Shown here piece after piece: positions 3,248-61,065 of a DNA stretch of 64,000 nucleotides (positions are counted from its first letter, which is position 1; each line of letters starts with the position of its first letter). The notes beneath the pieces are model-generated. The model was not told the origin of the DNA. It saw only the letters and a program-made list of their open reading frames with translations, and made no database searches. Source of the DNA: Candidatus Pacearchaeota archaeon. GTDB lineage: Bacteria; Patescibacteriota; Minisyncoccia; Minisyncoccales; UBA5738. The DNA lies in NCBI GenBank assembly GCA_035362275.1, contig DAOSDI010000002.1:2232-66231 (forward strand), written 5' to 3'. A program made the translations under genes and the position numbers.

Positions 3248-4021
3248 CTAATTGTTGAGCGAACTGTTCAAGTAGTAATCAATGGCTTGAGAATAGGTGC
3301 CCGCGGAATATAATTCCCGCACCTTGTTGAGATCAGCCATTTTCTCTTGTGGCAACATTTCCTCTTCGTTTAAATAAACGATCAGCGATTCAATAATCTG
3401 TTTGTCCAAGACCACTTCGGCGCGCGGATCTTCTTCCCCGGCGCCCGGCTCCGCGCCCAGCACGGCATAAACCTGCTTTTCCCTGTCGTCAATTTCTTTC
3501 ATCGCCCGCGCCGCCTGCTTGGCAATCTCGCCGGCCTTCCGGGGATTTTTTTTCACCATCGCGGCCACTTCTTTTTTGGCTTCGGTCTTCGCGGTCTGAT
3601 ACTCGTCCATCGCCGCCGGCAAGTTCCGCGCCAGATTCCGGCGGGAAATAATGTCAATTTCTTCCAGCCGCTTGGCGGCCAGCTGCAGATTCGCCGCGGC
3701 GACATCGCCGCGCCGGACTTGTCCCATCACCATCGCACTTCCTTTTTCCGCGGCTTTTTTCAATCCGTATAGCGGCTCCCCGGGCAACGCATTCTGCGCC
3801 GAAGCCAGCAATCCCCCGCCGGCGCCCGCCGCCAGAATCAATCCGGCCAATGCCGCGCGATATTGAAAAACAAAGCGGCGCAAAAAGATCATCGGCGAGC
3901 TTTTTGCCGCCATCGCTTCCGGCCCCATAATGCGCGTTTTGCACGAAACCACCCAATCGTTATCAGGCGCAATTTCCCGCAAAGTCTTTATTCGGTTGAT
4001 CAATGCTTTTTCGGAGTTCAT
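3248..4021 (-). CDS. Single-pass membrane protein, DUF5667-like; putative anti-sigma partner of the upstream ECF sigma factor
   Basis: TM segment AALAGLILAAGAGGGLLA is followed by LPGEPLYGLKKAAEKG, the motif characteristic of DUF5667. The gene lies directly downstream of the ECF sigma gene. Confidence 0.5.
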   Translation of the reverse strand: MNSEKALINRIKTLREIAPDNDWVVSCKTRIMGPEAMAAKSSPMIFLRRFVFQYRAALAGLILAAGAGGGLLASAQNALPGEPLYGLKKAAEKGSAMVMGQVRRGDVAAANLQLAAKRLEEIDIISRRNLARNLPAAMDEYQTAKTEAKKEVAAMVKKNPRKAGEIAKQAARAMKEIDDREKQVYAVLGAEPGAGEEDPRAEVVLDKQIIESLIVYLNEEEMLPQEKMADLNKVRELYSAGTYSQAIDYYLNSSLNN

Positions 4022-4128
4022 ATTTTTGGGCTCACACTACCGATGACGCAAAATCCGCGAAAATGTTACACTAGACAAAAATTAGCATTAAGGCGCCTAA
4101 GTTTATTCACACTTAAAATTCTTTTGCC

Positions 4129-4167
4129 AGGGTCTAACCCCCGCGATTACACGGGGGATAGACCCTT
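4129..4167. repeat. GGGTCTAACCC-family hairpin (solo copy)
   Basis: AGGGTCTAACCCCCGCG-ATTACA-CGGGGGATAGACCCTT is an imperfect palindrome with the same GGGTCTAACCC / GATAGACCC arms as the elements at 5690 and 60934. Confidence 0.6.
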
Positions 4168-5689: not shown

Positions 5690-5802
5690 AAAATTAAAGG
5701 GGTCTATCCCTCGTTAATGCGAGGGTTGGTCCCTTTTAATTCTGCATTCGGATTCTCTGGGAAGGGTCTAACCCTCGCGAGGACGCGAGGGTTAGACCCT
5801 TA
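5690..5802 (+). repeat. Composite two-hairpin repeat element (GGGTCTAACCC family), full copy
   Basis: Hairpin 1 at 5696-5737, conserved linker TAATTCTGCATTCGGATTCTCTGG, and hairpin 2 GGGTCTAACCCTCGCGAGGACGCGAGGGTTAGACCC at 5761-5802. It is near-identical in architecture to 60934-61045 and, as a partial reverse copy, to 42855-42917. Confidence 0.8.
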
Positions 5803-5821
5803 TCCCCGCGAGTGGTCACCC

Positions 5822-6538
5822 TTACCGATTTTCGGCACGGGGCGTACCGCCGGCAAGCGCCGATGTCTGCCAGCCCAAGTCCGGCCGGCGGAACATTGTT
5901 TTTTTGGAGAGATTGTCGCCGGCCGGCCATTTGGCCGGCGCCATCGCCGCATCGGCCAAGCGGCAGTTATCGTCAAACAAATAAAGCGCTTCGTTTTGAT
6001 TGCCCAAAGCTCCTTTGTAGGTTTTATCGGCGGCAACTTGCGGCACGGAATCATCATCGGTGCGCTCCAATAAATACAACCCTTGCGGCGGCAAAGTTTC
6101 ATCGCCGGTGAAAACGATTTTGATCTTCCGGTTTTTGTTTTGCAATTGCCATCCGGCAAGACCAACCTCTTGGCCGGAAATATTTTTCAACTCAATCCAT
6201 TCATCGCTGTAATTGGCTACCGTGCCCATCCAGGCAACTTCGCTGATGATCGCCGATTTTTGCGGCACGGCCGGCGCGGCGGCAAAATCGCACCAGACTA
6301 CCGGCGCCGTTTTTCCGGTTTTGGCCGGCGTGTTTTCCGTCCCCGCGTCTTCCCGCTCCGGCAAAGCTTCCGTGCGCGGCTTGATTTCCGTCCATCCGTT
6401 CCCGTACCAGGCGCCACCCAAGTTCGCGCTCAAAAAACCGGCGCCGTGTTGGCGCCACAACAACGTTCCTCCGGCCAAAAGCCCAACGAACAGCGCGCCG
6501 ATCACCGCCGCTTGTTTTTTGGACAAATAAAATGGCAT
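5822..6538 (-). CDS. Membrane-anchored lamin-tail-domain (LTD) protein
   Basis: ISEVAWMG...SDEWIELKNISGQEVGLAGWQL...LPPQGLYLLERT is LTD-like. I moved the start to the ATG at 6538 (MPFYLSKKQAAVIGALFVGLL, a TM anchor) because the longer ORF-track start lies inside the repeat element at 6594-6754. Confidence 0.65.
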   Translation of the reverse strand: MPFYLSKKQAAVIGALFVGLLAGGTLLWRQHGAGFLSANLGGAWYGNGWTEIKPRTEALPEREDAGTENTPAKTGKTAPVVWCDFAAAPAVPQKSAIISEVAWMGTVANYSDEWIELKNISGQEVGLAGWQLQNKNRKIKIVFTGDETLPPQGLYLLERTDDDSVPQVAADKTYKGALGNQNEALYLFDDNCRLADAAMAPAKWPAGDNLSKKTMFRRPDLGWQTSALAGGTPRAENR

Positions 6539-6593
6539 ATTAAAACGCAAATATTCGCGCGGCTGGCCTGCTTCCGGAGAGCAGATTCTACAA

Positions 6594-6754
6594 GGGTCTA
6601 TTGCCGAATTGGCTTTGGCTGCAATTTCCATCTTTCGGCTGCGCCAAATTCGTCAATCGTCGGCATACTTTAAGCCAAGTATGCCTCCTCTTTCCTCATT
6701 TGACTCGCGCAAAATCTGAAAATTTCGCTTCAAAGCCAATTCGGCAACAGACCC
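6594..6754 (-). repeat. 161-nt long-hairpin element (copy B), candidate MITE or structured RNA
   Basis: 24-bp terminal inverted repeats GGGTCTATTGCCGAATTGGCTTTG / CAAAGCCAATTCGGCAACAGACCC. The central core is shared with 13853-14014 in the opposite orientation. TACAA flanks both ends (6589-6593 and 6755-6759). Confidence 0.7.
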
Positions 6755-7449
6755 TACAAGTCAGCGGCCTTTTTGATCTTGGCAACCGAAATTACCGCAA
6801 CTTGCCCCGATTCGGCCACTTGGGCGATCCCCAGAAAATTACCCTCAATGTCAAACACCGGCGCGCCCGCGGAAGCGGCGTCTTCATAAATGTTGGTCAC
6901 AATCTTATCGCCGGAAACCGCGCGCACCGTCCCTTCGTTGGCAAAAAATTCACCGGACGCCAACGCGCCGACCAAAAAAATCCGCTCTCCCAGCGGCAAA
7001 TCCTCCTGTTGATAAAATCCCGCGGTGAATAAATCCGCATCATTCAAACGCAAAATCGCCAAATTCGCATCCTTGTCGCGCTTCACCACCTCAAAGCCAA
7101 TCTTTTCGCCGGCGGAAAAAACTTCCGCCGCGGCGCCGGCCGGATAGGCGCTGTTTAACGTTACTGCCAGTCCATCAGAGGTGATCGCCGCGCCGGAAAC
7201 CGTGTGGCCGCCGCCGGTCTTGACGGCGATTGCCATATTTTTCACTTTGGCGATGGCATTCTTCAACGCCTTGTTCTCTTGAATCACCGTTTCGCTCTTT
7301 TCAATTTTTGGCGACGAAAGTGTTGACGACAAATAAAGAGGCGCCAGTTCCACGCATTGATAGAAGGAAATCAATCCCCCCGCGGCACCGCCCGCGACCA
7401 GCAATGCGGCAGTCGCGGCGATTTTCAGAATTTTTTTGAATTTTATCAT
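6754..7449 (-). CDS. Membrane-anchored trypsin-fold (S1C/HtrA-like) protein with a degenerate catalytic triad
   Basis: It aligns by eye to the HtrA paralog in this window, with His replaced by Ser (VTLNSAY vs LTNKHVV), Asp by Asn (ANLAILRL vs NDIAVVKI) and Ser by Ala (ASAGAP vs GNSGGP). The gene starts 5 nt after the clpB stop. Confidence 0.6.
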   Translation of the reverse strand: MIKFKKILKIAATAALLVAGGAAGGLISFYQCVELAPLYLSSTLSSPKIEKSETVIQENKALKNAIAKVKNMAIAVKTGGGHTVSGAAITSDGLAVTLNSAYPAGAAAEVFSAGEKIGFEVVKRDKDANLAILRLNDADLFTAGFYQQEDLPLGERIFLVGALASGEFFANEGTVRAVSGDKIVTNIYEDAASAGAPVFDIEGNFLGIAQVAESGQVAVISVAKIKKAADL

Positions 7450-10162: not shown

Positions 10163-10207
10163 AATAAATTTAAAATTCAAAAATCAAAAATCAAAATTAA
10201 GGAAAAA

Positions 10208-10236
10208 ATTATATACCCTGAATTACAAAATAGCAA
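10208..10236 (-). promoter_or_regulatory. Sigma-70-like promoter candidate for clpB
   Basis: The minus strand reads TTGCTA (10236-10231), a 17-nt spacer, then TATAAT (10213-10208). It lies 45 nt upstream of the clpB ATG and 10 bp downstream of the 49-bp palindrome. Confidence 0.4.
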
Positions 10237-10332
10237 TATTGATATTGTAGCGGTATTTGATACCGCTAAAATTTAGCGGTATCAAATACCGCTACGATCC
10301 TAAAAATATTTATTTTGTAATTCAGGATATAT
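10211..10332. repeat. Nested palindromic cassette containing a 49-bp perfect double-hairpin (10247-10295)
   Basis: Inner sequence GTAGCGGTATTTGATACCGCTAAAATTTAGCGGTATCAAATACCGCTAC is a perfect palindrome made of two TAGCGGTAT-N3-ATACCGCTA hairpins. The outer 22-nt inverted repeats ATATACCCTGAATTACAAAATA / TATTTTGTAATTCAGGATATAT match 21/22. Confidence 0.85.
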
Positions 10333-10370
10333 TAAAATTTTCCATTTTGATTTTTTAATTTTTAATTTTT

Positions 10371-11651
10371 TTATCTTTCGCCCAGCGTCGCTTCCAATTC
10401 AATTTCGCCGCCGGCGCGCCGGACTTTCAGCTTTACCTTATCACCCGGATTATATTTTGCAATAACCCGCGCCAAGGAATTTTTTTGGTCCAGTTTTTGG
10501 CCGCCGATTTCCAGAATAATGTCCCCGTCCTTCAACCCGGCGGTTTGCGCGGGAGAACCGGCCATCACAGCGGTGCCGGATTCGCCGGCAGCAATCCACG
10601 CGCCGCGATCCGCCGGCAGATTATTTTCTTTTTGGAGGCGCGCGTCAATCATCGTGTAATAAACACCCAAGTAAGGATAGACGATCTTTCCCGAGGTTTT
10701 AGCCTGCGCCAATCCGCGCTTCGCCAAATTGATCGGAATCACAAATCCCACGTTTTGCGCGCCGCTGGCAATCGCGGTGTTAATGCCGATCACCTCGCCT
10801 TTCAAATTTAATAACGGCCCGCCGGAATTTCCCTCGTTGATGGCCGCATCGGTTTGGATCAAATCCTCCAAAACTTCGTCCTCGCCCGCGCCATAGGCAG
10901 TGATTGACCGTTGCATCCCCGAAATCACACCCACCGACACCGTATTGTCAAATTCTCCCAAGGCGTTGCCGATGGCAATCACGCTTTGGCCGATCTGTAA
11001 ATTGTCGGAATCTCCCAAAGCCACCGCGGGAAACCGCCGCCCGCCGCCGTCGGAGATCTTCACCACCGCAATGTCGTTGACCGGATCGGCCGCCGTCACT
11101 TTGGCCGCATAGCGCTCGCCATCGGACATCACCACGGTATATTGCGCCTGATTATCGCTCACCACGTGCTTGTTGGTTAAAATGGTGCCGTCTTCATCCA
11201 CGATGAATCCCGTGCCGGCGCCGATCTGCCGTTCCTCCGTGCCCCGCTGGCGCAATTGCGGCATCTGGAAGTCCCAGAAATCAAAAGGGTCGGTCCCGCG
11301 CGCATAATATCTTTCATAAACCGGCATATCTTTGGTGATGATGATGGACACCACCGCCGGAGAATAATCCTTGACCGCCTTGACGACCGCCTCTTCCTGT
11401 GAAGTTTGCGGCACATATTCAACCGGCATGTCCGCAGACGGCGTCTCAACGATTTGCGGCGCGAATTTTATCGCCGGCAAGTCAAACCGCTCGGCCAAAG
11501 AATCAAAATCTTGCGAAAACGCCAGCGCTCCCAAGGCAAATCCCGCGATCAGCACCAACATCGCCGGCCAAATGTTTTTTTTGCGATCCTTGCCCATTCC
11601 CAAAAAATTGCTTTTTGACTCCTCTTTTGAGGTGAGATCATACATTGACAT
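10371..11651 (-). CDS. htrA: HtrA/DegP-family serine protease with a C-terminal PDZ domain
   Basis: GTGFIVDEDGTILTNKHVV (His), NDIAVVKI (Asp), GNSGGPLLNLKGEVIGINTAI (Ser), a PDZ-like tail and an N-terminal TM anchor. The ORF-track start at 11684 is TTG inside the repeat, so I use the ATG at 11651 (MSMYDL). Confidence 0.9.
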   Translation of the reverse strand: MSMYDLTSKEESKSNFLGMGKDRKKNIWPAMLVLIAGFALGALAFSQDFDSLAERFDLPAIKFAPQIVETPSADMPVEYVPQTSQEEAVVKAVKDYSPAVVSIIITKDMPVYERYYARGTDPFDFWDFQMPQLRQRGTEERQIGAGTGFIVDEDGTILTNKHVVSDNQAQYTVVMSDGERYAAKVTAADPVNDIAVVKISDGGGRRFPAVALGDSDNLQIGQSVIAIGNALGEFDNTVSVGVISGMQRSITAYGAGEDEVLEDLIQTDAAINEGNSGGPLLNLKGEVIGINTAIASGAQNVGFVIPINLAKRGLAQAKTSGKIVYPYLGVYYTMIDARLQKENNLPADRGAWIAAGESGTAVMAGSPAQTAGLKDGDIILEIGGQKLDQKNSLARVIAKYNPGDKVKLKVRRAGGEIELEATLGER

Positions 11652-11665
11652 AGTATTAAATTGCT

Positions 11666-11790
11666 CTGAATTACAAGACAACAAATATTGGTATCGTAGC
11701 GGTATTTGATACCGCTAAAATTTAGCGGTATCAAATACCGCTACTTCCATACCGCTACTTCCCCGGCAATATTTATTTCGTAATTCAAAG
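11666..11790. repeat. Second copy of the palindromic cassette with the identical 49-bp double-hairpin (11696-11744)
   Basis: The 49-nt inner palindrome is identical base for base to 10247-10295. An extra half-site ATACCGCTAC sits at 11749-11758. The outer arms CTGAATTACAAG / CGTAATTCAAAG are related to those of the first copy. Confidence 0.85.
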
Positions 11791-13809: not shown

Positions 13810-13852
13810 GTTTCAAATTTAAAATTTAAAAATCAAAATGAAAAATGACAAT

Positions 13853-14014
13853 GAGATGGTTTCAAAACCCTATTCGTTACGAAATCGTTTTATTCCGAGC
13901 GAGCCGAATGAAGAACGAGGAGGCATACTTGAAGCTAAGGTCTGCCGACGAGTGATGAATTCGGCGTAGCCGGAATAAAACGATTGCAGTAGGATAGGGT
14001 TTTGAAACCATCTC
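13853..14014 (+). repeat. 162-nt long-hairpin element (copy A), candidate structured RNA
   Basis: 21-bp perfect outer stem GAGATGGTTTCAAAACCCTAT / ATAGGGTTTTGAAACCATCTC and a 15-bp second stem AATCGTTTTATTCCG / CGGAATAAAACGATT. The central core GCGAGCCGAATGAAGAACGAGGAGGCATACTTG...TGCCGACGAGTGATGAATTCGGCGTAGCCG is shared with the reverse complement of 6594-6754. Confidence 0.7.
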
Positions 14015-14091
14015 CATGTAAAATTAAAAATTATTAAATCAAAATTACGTCAAGAATTTTACCTTAATTTTACATTTTGATTTTTACATTT

Positions 14092-15420
14092 TTAATTAGA
14101 GCTTTCACCGAAGATAAGGTTTCGGATATTAGCCACGCCCATCCTTTCCCCCTCAATGAATCCTTCCATTGCCGCCTCGGCCAGATAGCCGTTTTCCCGC
14201 CAGTCATCAAGCCATTGGCCGATACAGCGCAAGTCTTCCTGCTCCAAACCGAATCCTGATTTTAACAGCCAGCTTTTGTTGAAATCTTCCTGCGAACCGA
14301 TCGGCGGCGCGATCACAATGGGAATTCCCAGTGCGGCATAGAACGAAAGTTCGCTGGGTTTGGTCCAAAGAATATCGGTGGCGCGCAATGTTTTATTGAA
14401 GCGGTCAAAATATTTCGCGATCGTCGTTTCAAACAGAATTTCCAATCCCGGGGTTTCCTCCGCGTCCAGTCCCGCGGCCAGCACGCCCCGCTCATAAAAA
14501 TACTTGACCCTTTCGTTAATGCCCGCCGACAAAATCAATTTCAATTTGCCGGCGACAATCCGGTCTTTTAGCTGGCGCGCCAGCGCCAATCCGATTTCGC
14601 CCTGCGCGCCGGCGCCGCCGGCGGAAAACATTATCGTGAGCGGATGCCGCGTTTTTAAAGTCGGTGCACACAAAGAATTGTTCACCAGCTGGCAATATTT
14701 TGAAAGATAGACATTGTTGGGATCCAAATTCGCCAGCCGTTGCGCCAAATCTTCTTTAAGAATACCGCCCTCGTCCCCGATGTTTTCCTCGGGCAAAGGA
14801 TAACCGGTCAGAAAAATTCTTTTTTTGGGCACCCCGTAGAGCTTTAACCGTTCCACCACGCGCGGCGTGGGCGCGCAATAATTGATGCGGCTGGAGATCG
14901 GATGTTTGGGCGCCCATTGGCGGCTGATATCGGCATCGCAAACCACCAGGTAAATTTCTTCGGAATAATTGAATTCTTCGGCCATAAACGCCGTGATGAA
15001 AAAAGTGGTCACCAGCGGCCGCGGGTCTTTTTCCAACTGCGCCACAAAATGCCTTCCCCAGCCTTTTTTGATTAGTCCGTAAGTGCGGTTCGTCAAAAAC
15101 GGCGCCCGCGACAGATCCTTCATCGGATAAAAATCAACGATCCGCTGAAAAAGCCGGTCATAGGCCGCAAACACCGCATGGCCGACCATCGGAATGCGTT
15201 TGAACTTTGAGATCGCTTCGTAAAAGCGGCGGCTTTCCTGCCAGATTTTCCGGTCGCGCGGCGGAATTCCCGGGTAATCGTTGGCATTGATCACTTCGCC
15301 GCCGGACAGCGACCGGAGCGTGTGCGCGGTGCGCTGATGGCCGTAACCCATATTCACGCCCACCACCCACGCTTTCCGCGCGCGGCGATTTTTGGTTTCC
15401 GTTTCCGTTTTCATCTTCAA
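14092..15420 (-). CDS. Putative GT-B glycosyltransferase (MGDG-synthase/MurG-like)
   Basis: N-terminal VVGVNMGYGHQRTAHTLRSL resembles the G-x-G-H-x-R-A motif of MGDG-synthase/GT28-type enzymes. The C-terminal half IMFSAGGAGAQGEIG is GT-B-like. This is a weak call without a profile search. Confidence 0.4.
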   Translation of the reverse strand: MKMKTETETKNRRARKAWVVGVNMGYGHQRTAHTLRSLSGGEVINANDYPGIPPRDRKIWQESRRFYEAISKFKRIPMVGHAVFAAYDRLFQRIVDFYPMKDLSRAPFLTNRTYGLIKKGWGRHFVAQLEKDPRPLVTTFFITAFMAEEFNYSEEIYLVVCDADISRQWAPKHPISSRINYCAPTPRVVERLKLYGVPKKRIFLTGYPLPEENIGDEGGILKEDLAQRLANLDPNNVYLSKYCQLVNNSLCAPTLKTRHPLTIMFSAGGAGAQGEIGLALARQLKDRIVAGKLKLILSAGINERVKYFYERGVLAAGLDAEETPGLEILFETTIAKYFDRFNKTLRATDILWTKPSELSFYAALGIPIVIAPPIGSQEDFNKSWLLKSGFGLEQEDLRCIGQWLDDWRENGYLAEAAMEGFIEGERMGVANIRNLIFGESSN

Positions 15421-42854: not shown

Positions 42855-42917
42855 AAAGGTCTGACCCTCGCGTCCTCGCGAGGGTCAGACCTTTCCCAGA
42901 GAATCCGAATTTCAGCC
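42855..42917 (-). repeat. Partial reverse copy of the composite GGGTCTAACCC-family element (linker plus hairpin 2)
   Basis: The minus strand reads GGCTGAAATTCGGATTCTCTGGGAAAGGTCTGACCCTCGCGAGGACGCGAGGGTCAGACCTTT. Confidence 0.75.
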
Positions 42918-60727: not shown

Positions 60728-60933
60728 TACATTACCTCTTATTTATTTTAAGAACTATTTCTTATTTCTTACCGTTGTTTCGGCGCTGTTCCCTGCCCGC
60801 TCCGAGCGGGTGTTGCCTTTCCTTGGCCGGCGGACGCTCTCCGGCTAAAACTCTCTTTTTTCGCTCCATACTTTTTAATATAATTTTATTGAAAAAATGT
60901 AAAGAGATAAAAGGGTAACTACTCGCTGGTCCC

Positions 60934-61045
60934 AAAATTAAAAGGGTCTAACCCTCGCATTAACGAGGGATAGACCCTTTTAATTTTGAATTCGGATTCT
61001 CTGGAAGGGTCTAACCCTTTTGATTACAAAAGGGTTAGACCCTTA
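60934..61045 (+). repeat. Composite two-hairpin repeat element (GGGTCTAACCC family), full copy
   Basis: AAAATTAAAAGGGTCTAACCCTCGCATTAACGAGGGATAGACCCTTTTAATTTTGAATTCGGATTCTCTGGAAGGGTCTAACCCTTTTGATTACAAAAGGGTTAGACCCTTAA. Hairpin 1 is the reverse complement of hairpin 1 at 5696-5737. Confidence 0.8.
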
Positions 61046-61065
61046 ACACAAACACGGATGCGAAG

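Follow-up and report, generated by a model that had tools for sequence, protein, structure and literature searches.

Miniature inverted-repeat transposable elements of prokaryotes (MITEs) are characterized by terminal inverted repeats, direct repeats, targets that are AT-rich and intergenic, and transcripts able to fold into stable stem-loops; among them, the transcripts of Correia elements are cut by RNase III at their paired ends, and ERIC elements affect mRNA decay according to their orientation (PMC10969869). The analyses reported here concern two hairpin elements, copy A and copy B, within 64 kb of contig DAOSDI010000002.1 of a Patescibacteriota genome (the whole stretch analysed, 64,000 nt, is hereafter called the window), and lead us to propose that A and B probably represent a previously undescribed family of ~160 bp, non-coding, non-autonomous foldback transposable elements, MITE-like in kind, whose core works in single-stranded form, likely as RNA. 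The family is small and non-coding, has terminal inverted repeats and target-site duplications, and occupies multiple loci with presence/absence polymorphism, and since these features match the published description of MITEs we regard it as MITE-like. An earlier reading of the window from its letters alone (the sequence-only reading) had considered the pair unlike a MITE; against this stand termini that are conserved within subfamilies, scattered intergenic sites, target-site duplications and a 166 nt insertion at the site of copy B. Two features are unusual for elements of this kind: conservation is inverted, the centre being kept better than the ends, and one core is joined to several types of end and to two lengths of duplication.

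We show that the element is inserted in one piece and that the target is cut in a staggered way. At the site of copy B, the empty form is preserved in L107 (retrieved loci are designated by L numbers), where the flanking protease is 89 % identical and the site reads GGCTTATAG followed directly by AAATCGC; the filled site in the window reads GACTTGTAG, then the element (GGTCT...AGACC), then CTTGTAGAATCTGC. The difference is an insertion of 166 nt, that is, the 161 nt element plus a duplicated TTGTA. Copy B is absent at the orthologous sites in L107, L108 and L111. For copy A, L098 and L101 have an intergenic gap shorter by ~161 nt (judged by gene coordinates), and the element is missing from L098 and L100–L106, all of which encode an identical 304-aa neighbour protein; the junction of the empty site is unreadable, the AT-rich spacer having diverged too far in those strains. 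As a separate observation, two of the loci without copy B (L111:1000-1050 and L108:2240-2300, orthologous to window positions ~6540-6760) carry a hairpin of terminator-like form, GGCCGCCGG...CCGCCGGTTTTTTT, which has a T run, overlaps the end of the protease gene and is absent from the window and L107.

The family was collected by two scans. The first, with the core pattern and one genome per species, returned 19 loci, of which we set 12 aside as chance matches that fall in E-rich coding regions of high-GC genomes; the other seven are true copies, all in metagenome-assembled genomes (MAGs) of Patescibacteria, namely UBA6102, which has at least five, UBA5738, a Minisyncoccales MAG and another that is labelled Saccharibacteria. 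The second, run on metagenomes with all Watson–Crick positions of the pattern unconstrained, returned 70 loci, every one a true copy and two of them from the window's own contig. From their series designations (Ga0116xxx, Ga0172xxx, Ga0265xxx and Ga0302xxx) rather than from retrieved descriptions, we take the samples to be anaerobic-digester and landfill metagenomes. The collection comprises 56 distinct sequences at about 54 sites, to which a covariance model adds a few diverged or truncated copies; true relatives occur only in Patescibacteria genomes or metagenome contigs, and viral contigs hold no copy. Ten copies are cut off by a contig end, as expected because repeats break assemblies. As far as sampled, then, the family appears to be restricted to a clade of Patescibacteria (Minisyncoccales and relatives), and literature searches brought up neither a description of this element nor one of MITEs in Patescibacteria.

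Elements are 158–163 bp long and the hairpin occupies the whole of that length, which therefore leaves no room for a gene. Five subfamilies can be told apart by their ends: subfamily I, with most copies (dozens), starts AGACCTACTGCG..., subfamily II (including copy B) GGGTCTGTTGCC..., subfamily III (including copy A) GAGATGGTTTC..., subfamily IV GAGGCTGTCTG... and subfamily V GAGAGTGTAG.... Termini are conserved inside subfamilies and differ between them, with some residual likeness (AGACCTGCTGCC and GGGTCTGTTGCC agree at 8 of 12 positions), and at the ends the arms are complementary over 23 bp. The ends of A and B thus look unrelated only because the two copies belong to different subfamilies. 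Different subfamilies also share single contigs: II and III in the window, I and II in L052, I and V in L035.

All copies are intergenic, in AT-rich DNA and often abutting a stop codon. At the 44 fully flanked sites the G·A-bearing strand (see below) runs in the same sense as its neighbours 13 times and antisense 18 times, and lies between divergent genes 10 times and between convergent genes three times; clustering of the open reading frames (ORFs) around 77 loci revealed no recurring neighbour protein family, only housekeeping families. In subfamily II, 5 bp direct repeats flank six of ten sites, plus L052b (TTGTA, TTTAG, CGTTA, CATAG, TTTTA, TTAAT and TTAAA). Of the 25 subfamily I sites that remain once duplicates and chimeras are removed, 18 have flanking direct repeats of 3 bp (AAT, ATT or AAA; p = 1.5e-4 by permutation), and 3 bp repeats are found also in subfamily IV (TAA, two of three sites) and subfamily V (AAT, one site). 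Some contigs have flanks that do not belong together: compared with L067, L081, L071, L058 and L086, contigs L053, L076 and L088 have the left flank of one site and the right flank of another, which may reflect element-mediated recombination or, more likely, chimeric metagenome assemblies.

Compensatory evolution maintains the whole-element rod hairpin. RNAalifold on 21 representatives of the 56 distinct copies yields a single hairpin of 57 pairs, in 35 of which at least one sequence has changed on both sides; standard pairs fill 98.1 % of cells, compared with 82 % in column shuffles (none of 500 as high), and sliding the register lowers pairing to 28–46 %. In the outer stem (columns 1–23 with 141–163) compensatory changes affect 21 of the 23 pairs, and an interior stem covaries as well, GCCG/CGGC being replaced by AAAA/UUUU in four sequences. 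The proposal that a conserved core is combined with variable but paired outer stems, made for two copies, accordingly extends with covariation support to the 21 representatives. Mean pairwise identity is 85 % in the inner module and 54 % in the outer stems.

Within this rod, the most distinctive part is the core helix, which in copy A lies between the stem GCCGAAU/AUUCGGC and the apical stem GGCAUA.../...UAUGCC. What had been described as the conserved loops of the core are instead four tandem G·A/A·G pairs, spaced by one, two and one Watson–Crick pairs, so that both strands of the helix carry the pattern GA-N-GA-NN-GA-N-GA and the helix is 2-fold pseudo-symmetric. The spacer pairs themselves show covariation within the family (columns 61:105 and 64:102), and where A has A-U and C-G, B has G-C and A-U. 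Two internal loops of the form GA / A(Y)G and one conserved U·G pair (columns 37:129) are situated further down the stem. All eight G·A positions of the retrieved set are kept as mismatches and are not ‘repaired’ to Watson–Crick pairs. The structure is strand-specific because of the conserved G·A pairs and the conserved U·G pair: the G·A strand folds more stably than its complement in 56 of 56 copies (mean −76.8 vs −62.2 kcal/mol), and in 55 of 56 under DNA parameters, and the alignment holds 47 G·U cells against 13 A·C cells. Such strand specificity fits a function in single-stranded RNA or DNA. The earlier suggestion of a structured RNA or hairpin-recognized DNA therefore stands as regards covariation and strand specificity, but not as an alternative to a MITE, since the element is mobile. 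Two variants deserve mention. In L052:3623-3781 the G·A helix has half the length, its tandem G·A pairs numbering about two where other copies have four, a hint that a two-unit helix was duplicated to give the four-unit one; and in the subfamily I copy L010:1813-2000 an extra hairpin of ~30 nt, GCGATTCCGCGTAGCGGAAT, separates the middle stem from the core in the 5′ arm.

Both copies in the window lie where the sequence-only reading placed them (Table 1) and fold as it described, with z about −14 and −11. Copy A forms one 162 nt hairpin with a minimum free energy of −89.6 kcal/mol (dinucleotide shuffles −37.7 ± 3.7; z −14.1), and copy B, read as the reverse complement, a single rod hairpin of −88.0 kcal/mol (shuffles about −40; z −11.2). 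Their outer stems are indeed unrelated in sequence yet almost perfectly paired over 23–24 bp, and only the outermost 23–27 nt of each arm differ between them. The core that they share, first put at ~75 nt, turns out to be larger in extent, an inner module of ~110 nt from CGAAAT to ATTGCAG. The change of GCCGAAT/ATTCGGC (A) to GTCAAAT/ATTTGGC (B) does comprise one compensatory replacement, of G-C by A-U, together with one of C-G by U·G. The two core-half strings each occur exactly twice in the window (chance expectation 0.00–0.03), and the covariance model, run with filters off, finds no third copy in the 64 kb; it scores copy A at 174.7 bits on the + strand vs 68.7 on the − strand, and copy B at 172.6 bits on the − strand. 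The G·A-bearing strand of copy A is antisense to both neighbouring genes and that of copy B is in the same sense as its neighbours, where the first G of the element completes the TAG stop of ORF 6754-7449. Near-identical relatives of copy A are present at other loci (L014, L050, L061/L070 and L080).

Table 1. Positions of copies A and B and of their parts in the window
Feature	Position	Strand	Basis
Copy A, complete 162 nt foldback element, subfamily III (GAGATGG...CCATCTC ends)	13853..14014	+	Fold and covariance model
Copy A outer stem, 5′ arm (variable; partner 13992-14014)	13853..13875	+	Fold; alignment columns 1-23 vs 141-163
Copy A outer stem, 3′ arm	13992..14014	+	Fold, covariation
Copy A conserved inner module (CGAAAT...ATTGCAG)	13880..13989	+	Family alignment
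Copy A G·A helix, 5′ strand GA-A-GA-AC-GA-G-GA (opposite 13947-13958)	13910..13921	+	Sequence, core match
Copy A G·A helix, 3′ strand GA-C-GA-GT-GA-T-GA	13947..13958	+	Sequence, core match
Copy B, complete 161 nt foldback element, subfamily II (GGGTCTG...AGACCC ends)	6594..6754	-	Fold and covariance model
Copy B conserved inner module	6619..6727	-	Family alignment
Copy B G·A helix, 5′ strand GA-G-GA-AA-GA-G-GA	6686..6697	-	Sequence, core match
Copy B G·A helix, 3′ strand GA-C-GA-TT-GA-C-GA	6650..6661	-	Sequence, core match
Copy B target-site duplication, upstream TTGTA (- strand)	6755..6759	-	Window sequence; L107 empty site
Copy B target-site duplication, downstream TTGTA (- strand)	6589..6593	-	Window sequence; L107 empty site

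Other repeats are present in the window. The AT-rich spacers 10163-10371 and 13813-14100 contain long nested inverted repeats of AAAATCAAAAAT/ATTTTTGATTTT, which enclose either an inner palindrome or copy A. Since other copies of subfamily III are without such flanks, they do not belong to the element. A second repeat family, at 5690-5805 and 60933-61046, consists of a unit of ~110 nt with two hairpins built on AAGGGTCTAACCCT...AGGGTTAGACCCTT and a conserved linker, ATTCGGATTCTCTGG, and is found also as lone hairpins (4128-4167 and 42855-42894); its motif has 14 matches in the window, with 0.14 expected. The first hairpin of this unit has A and T runs on its sides, resembling a bidirectional terminator, and its ends, GGGTCT...AGACCC, resemble those of subfamily II. 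Finally, a perfect 49 bp palindrome, GTAGCGGTATTTGATACCGCTAAA/TTTAGCGGTATCAAATACCGCTAC, occurs in identical form in AT-rich spacers at 10247-10295 and 11696-11744, with one diverged relative at 794-815 (within 750-846).

Considering how a foldback element of this kind could move and what its core might do, we suggest that it is mobilized in trans by at least one transposase encoded elsewhere; the different termini and duplication lengths suggest more than one such enzyme. The core is presumably not the terminal binding site of the transposase and, since it would not be needed by that enzyme at the termini, we take it to be a module of the G·A strand that may act when single-stranded. Its most likely form would be RNA, made where the element and a neighbouring gene are transcribed together, and the core RNA could then serve as the binding site of a protein (possibly dimeric), as a determinant of processing or stability, or as both. 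By analogy with Correia and ERIC, the perfect 23 bp outer stem may be a substrate of an RNase III-type enzyme, and the inner G·A rod a hairpin that binds protein or resists processing.

Several points weigh against this interpretation. At the five sites of subfamily III, copy A included, no target-site duplication could be resolved. The ~630 kb of DNA fetched contains no autonomous partner and no transposase with matching ends, and a BLAST search with the five end types against all fetched loci yielded only short palindromes without the core. The termini have no conserved terminal dinucleotides in common, as would be usual if a single family of transposases acted on them, and it is unusual for one family of elements to have duplications of two lengths; a typical MITE is, moreover, most conserved at its ends and not at its centre. 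The conservation of the G·A positions is partly by construction, the retrieval patterns having demanded them, and two diverged copies that the covariance model brought in (L035:10364-10524 and L052:3623-3781) have lost some of them. Furthermore, orientation being random, read-through would transcribe no more than about half of the copies in the G·A sense, and no conserved promoter was found inside the element.

We also consider, as a possibility to be held more doubtful than probable, that the apical module is in itself a structured nucleic-acid motif of a new type. It would be rod-shaped, with tandem sheared G·A pairs (four, up to seven) in 2-fold pseudo-symmetry, and would bind a dimeric protein of the host or of the element. 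As the cargo of miniature transposons with at least two kinds of end (3 bp and 5 bp duplications), a functional RNA or single-stranded DNA module would then spread through the streamlined genomes of Patescibacteria, either by hitch-hiking on different machineries of transposition or by insertion into palindromes.

The main rival to the transposon proposal is that the hairpin is a single-stranded DNA substrate, as in IS200/IS605-derived palindromes, REP/RAYT and attC: the folded strand would be recognized by its structure, with the G·A core as the enzyme's site and the base of the hairpin as the ends. This is an attractive explanation of several features, namely that structure is kept while the sequence of the outer stem drifts, that mismatches are conserved on one strand only (the stabler strand under DNA parameters too), that the element ends at the hairpin base and that the centre is better conserved than the ends. 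The first two of these are hallmarks of recognition of the attC and IS200/IS605 type. Systems of this type, however, leave no target-site duplications, which the element has; in attC sites it is the base that is kept and the apex that varies, opposite to the present element; and no Y1/HUH or integrase gene recurs near the copies. Nor is there a bias of orientation with respect to gene direction (13 vs 18), which tracks replication here, the GC skew of the window being monotonic and A and B being oppositely oriented in it. We therefore regard a single-stranded DNA substrate as unlikely. A different division of the element, by which only the inner module of ~110 nt is mobile or functional and has inserted repeatedly at the dyad centres of pre-existing palindromes, the outer stems being host palindromes, would account for the sharp drop in conservation at CGAAAT and ATTGCAG and for the duplication length that differs among subfamilies. 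Outer-stem palindromes without the core do exist (for subfamily I at L052 ~6166-6205 and L038 ~3280-3315, for subfamily II at L030 ~1533-1580, and also in L022), but they are ~10 times rarer than full copies in the same DNA, and those of subfamily I can be explained by deletion between copies of a 12 nt direct repeat, AAATATTTACGC, present in both arms. More directly, at the site of copy B the entire 161 nt element, outer stem included, is what distinguishes the filled from the empty site, the duplications border the outer stems and not the inner module, and the outer stems remain alignable across subfamilies (the 8 of 12 positions noted above), so that we consider there to be only a slim chance of such nested insertion.

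An ordinary, non-mobile family of chromosomal small-RNA genes, with the outer stem as a mere closing helix, would likewise be expected to show strong covariation and strand-specific motifs, and could well be without a match in Rfam. It is contradicted by the target-site duplications and empty sites, as well as by the unrelated flanks and random orientation of the copies; conserved promoters or terminators are missing, conservation ends at the base of the hairpin and assemblies break within the element. This makes a small-RNA gene family very improbable. It is equally hard for us to believe that the core is functionless and conserved merely through recent copying or gene conversion among copies. 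Many subfamily I copies are near-identical, and L087:1692-1850, when compared with L003:4103-4264 (minus strand) and L028:5752-5913, has the same site and outer stem and a different apical core, as gene conversion could produce; this case may, however, be an assembly chimera and is not used as evidence. Between subfamilies the outer stems have diverged to 31–54 % identity with the inner module still at ~85 %, the eight G·A mismatches neither drift nor become ‘repaired’, and the interior stems have compensatory changes such as that of GCCG/CGGC to AAAA/UUUU, all of which weighs against a core without function.

Patescibacteria have very small, streamlined genomes, in which an active family of foldback transposons can usefully mark genome dynamics and causes assemblies to break. 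The family also constitutes a natural experiment, in which the ends have diverged almost to saturation with pairing kept and the centre has been frozen, including eight G·A mismatches on one strand; the frozen centre, set against the diverged ends, points to a specific partner for the core. The 50 nt core motif is amenable to tests of protein binding, RNase processing and transposase recognition. If transposons with different ends turned out to carry a functional RNA as their core, this would illustrate the spread of a regulatory RNA module through a genome. The feature itself is real and well supported, and we class it as a new family of a known kind, MITE-like foldback repeats, in a phylum for which no description of this repeat or of MITEs came up in literature searches.

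As to known RNAs, the view that the core lies outside described families was borne out, neither the whole window nor the two copies giving a match to it in Rfam 15. At the gathering threshold the sole match in the window is a tRNA-Leu, and at E ≤ 10 the two copies give only chance-level matches, all with E > 1, to C/D small nucleolar RNAs (E about 2–4), RalA, a microRNA and ARRPOF. Box C/D and kink-turn RNAs have tandem sheared G·A pairs in common with the core, and copy A holds GUGAUGA, the box C consensus. In those RNAs box C (RUGAUGA) and box D (CUGA) make a 3 nt bulge that tandem G·A pairs follow; we reject this identity, given that the G·A pairs lie in symmetric 2x2 loops without a 3 nt bulge and that the box C sequence is found only in A (UUGACGA in B). 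A hammerhead, a mini-ORF with Shine–Dalgarno sequence and start codon, and a sarcin–ricin likeness were considered by eye and rejected, their motifs not being shared by A and B. An intrinsic terminator was rejected also, as no T run follows the hairpin and only three of the 44 flanked sites lie between convergent genes. TIGR systems are known from Patescibacteria and their phages, as arrays with two variable spacers beside a Nop-domain Tas gene (PMC12045711). The copies described here are single and dispersed, with an invariant core and without variable spacers or an adjacent Nop-domain gene, and are not a TIGR-Tas array.

With attC sites, the ends of IS200/IS605 and REP/RAYT hairpins the elements share the idea that a folded strand is recognized and that mismatched bases mark the functional strand. 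In attC, the conserved R''/R' boxes (RYYYAAC / GTTRRRY) are at the hairpin base and the apex is variable; judged by this consensus, the elements are not integron attC sites, having a variable base, a conserved apex and no GTTRRRY. IS200/IS605-derived palindromes and REP/RAYT insert without duplication beside a fixed tetra- or pentanucleotide; this identity was rejected on account of the duplications and the lack of a fixed flanking motif, and REPs are 20–40 nt long, unlike the ~160 nt element, with which no associated recombinase was seen.

Leads to the origin of the ends come from two groups of transposons. Canonical Harbinger elements generate 3 bp duplications (PMC12730594). The 3 bp A-W-T/TAA duplications of subfamilies I, IV and V recall those of IS5 / PIF-Harbinger-type MITEs, a likeness that serves as a lead and not as a test. 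The same holds for the target preferences of the IS5 subgroups and for the ends of Tn3 (about 38 bp, starting GGGG and ending TAAG, with a 5 bp duplication), which we use as leads only. Subfamily II recalls Tn3-derived miniature elements by its 5 bp duplication in AT-rich DNA and its GGG(G)TCTG terminus, again a lead rather than a test; unlike in these, the TAAG inner end motif (position ~35–38) is absent and the other subfamilies have 3 bp duplications. A BLAST search of a plasmid collection with one arm gave noise only.

Finally, the closest likeness is to the bacterial MITEs Correia/NEMIS (Neisseria), ERIC/IRU (enterobacteria), RUP (pneumococcus), QMITE (Coxiella) and the Rickettsia palindromic elements, which are likewise 100–200 bp long, non-coding and multi-copy, and which share with the present family terminal inverted repeats, short target-site duplications, AT-rich intergenic targets, occurrence in both orientations and a stem-loop formed by the whole element. 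The present family differs from them in its Patescibacteria host and in having no known parent insertion sequence, and above all in its conserved centre, its several subfamilies of ends, its two duplication lengths and a core of tandem G·A pairs specific to one strand.

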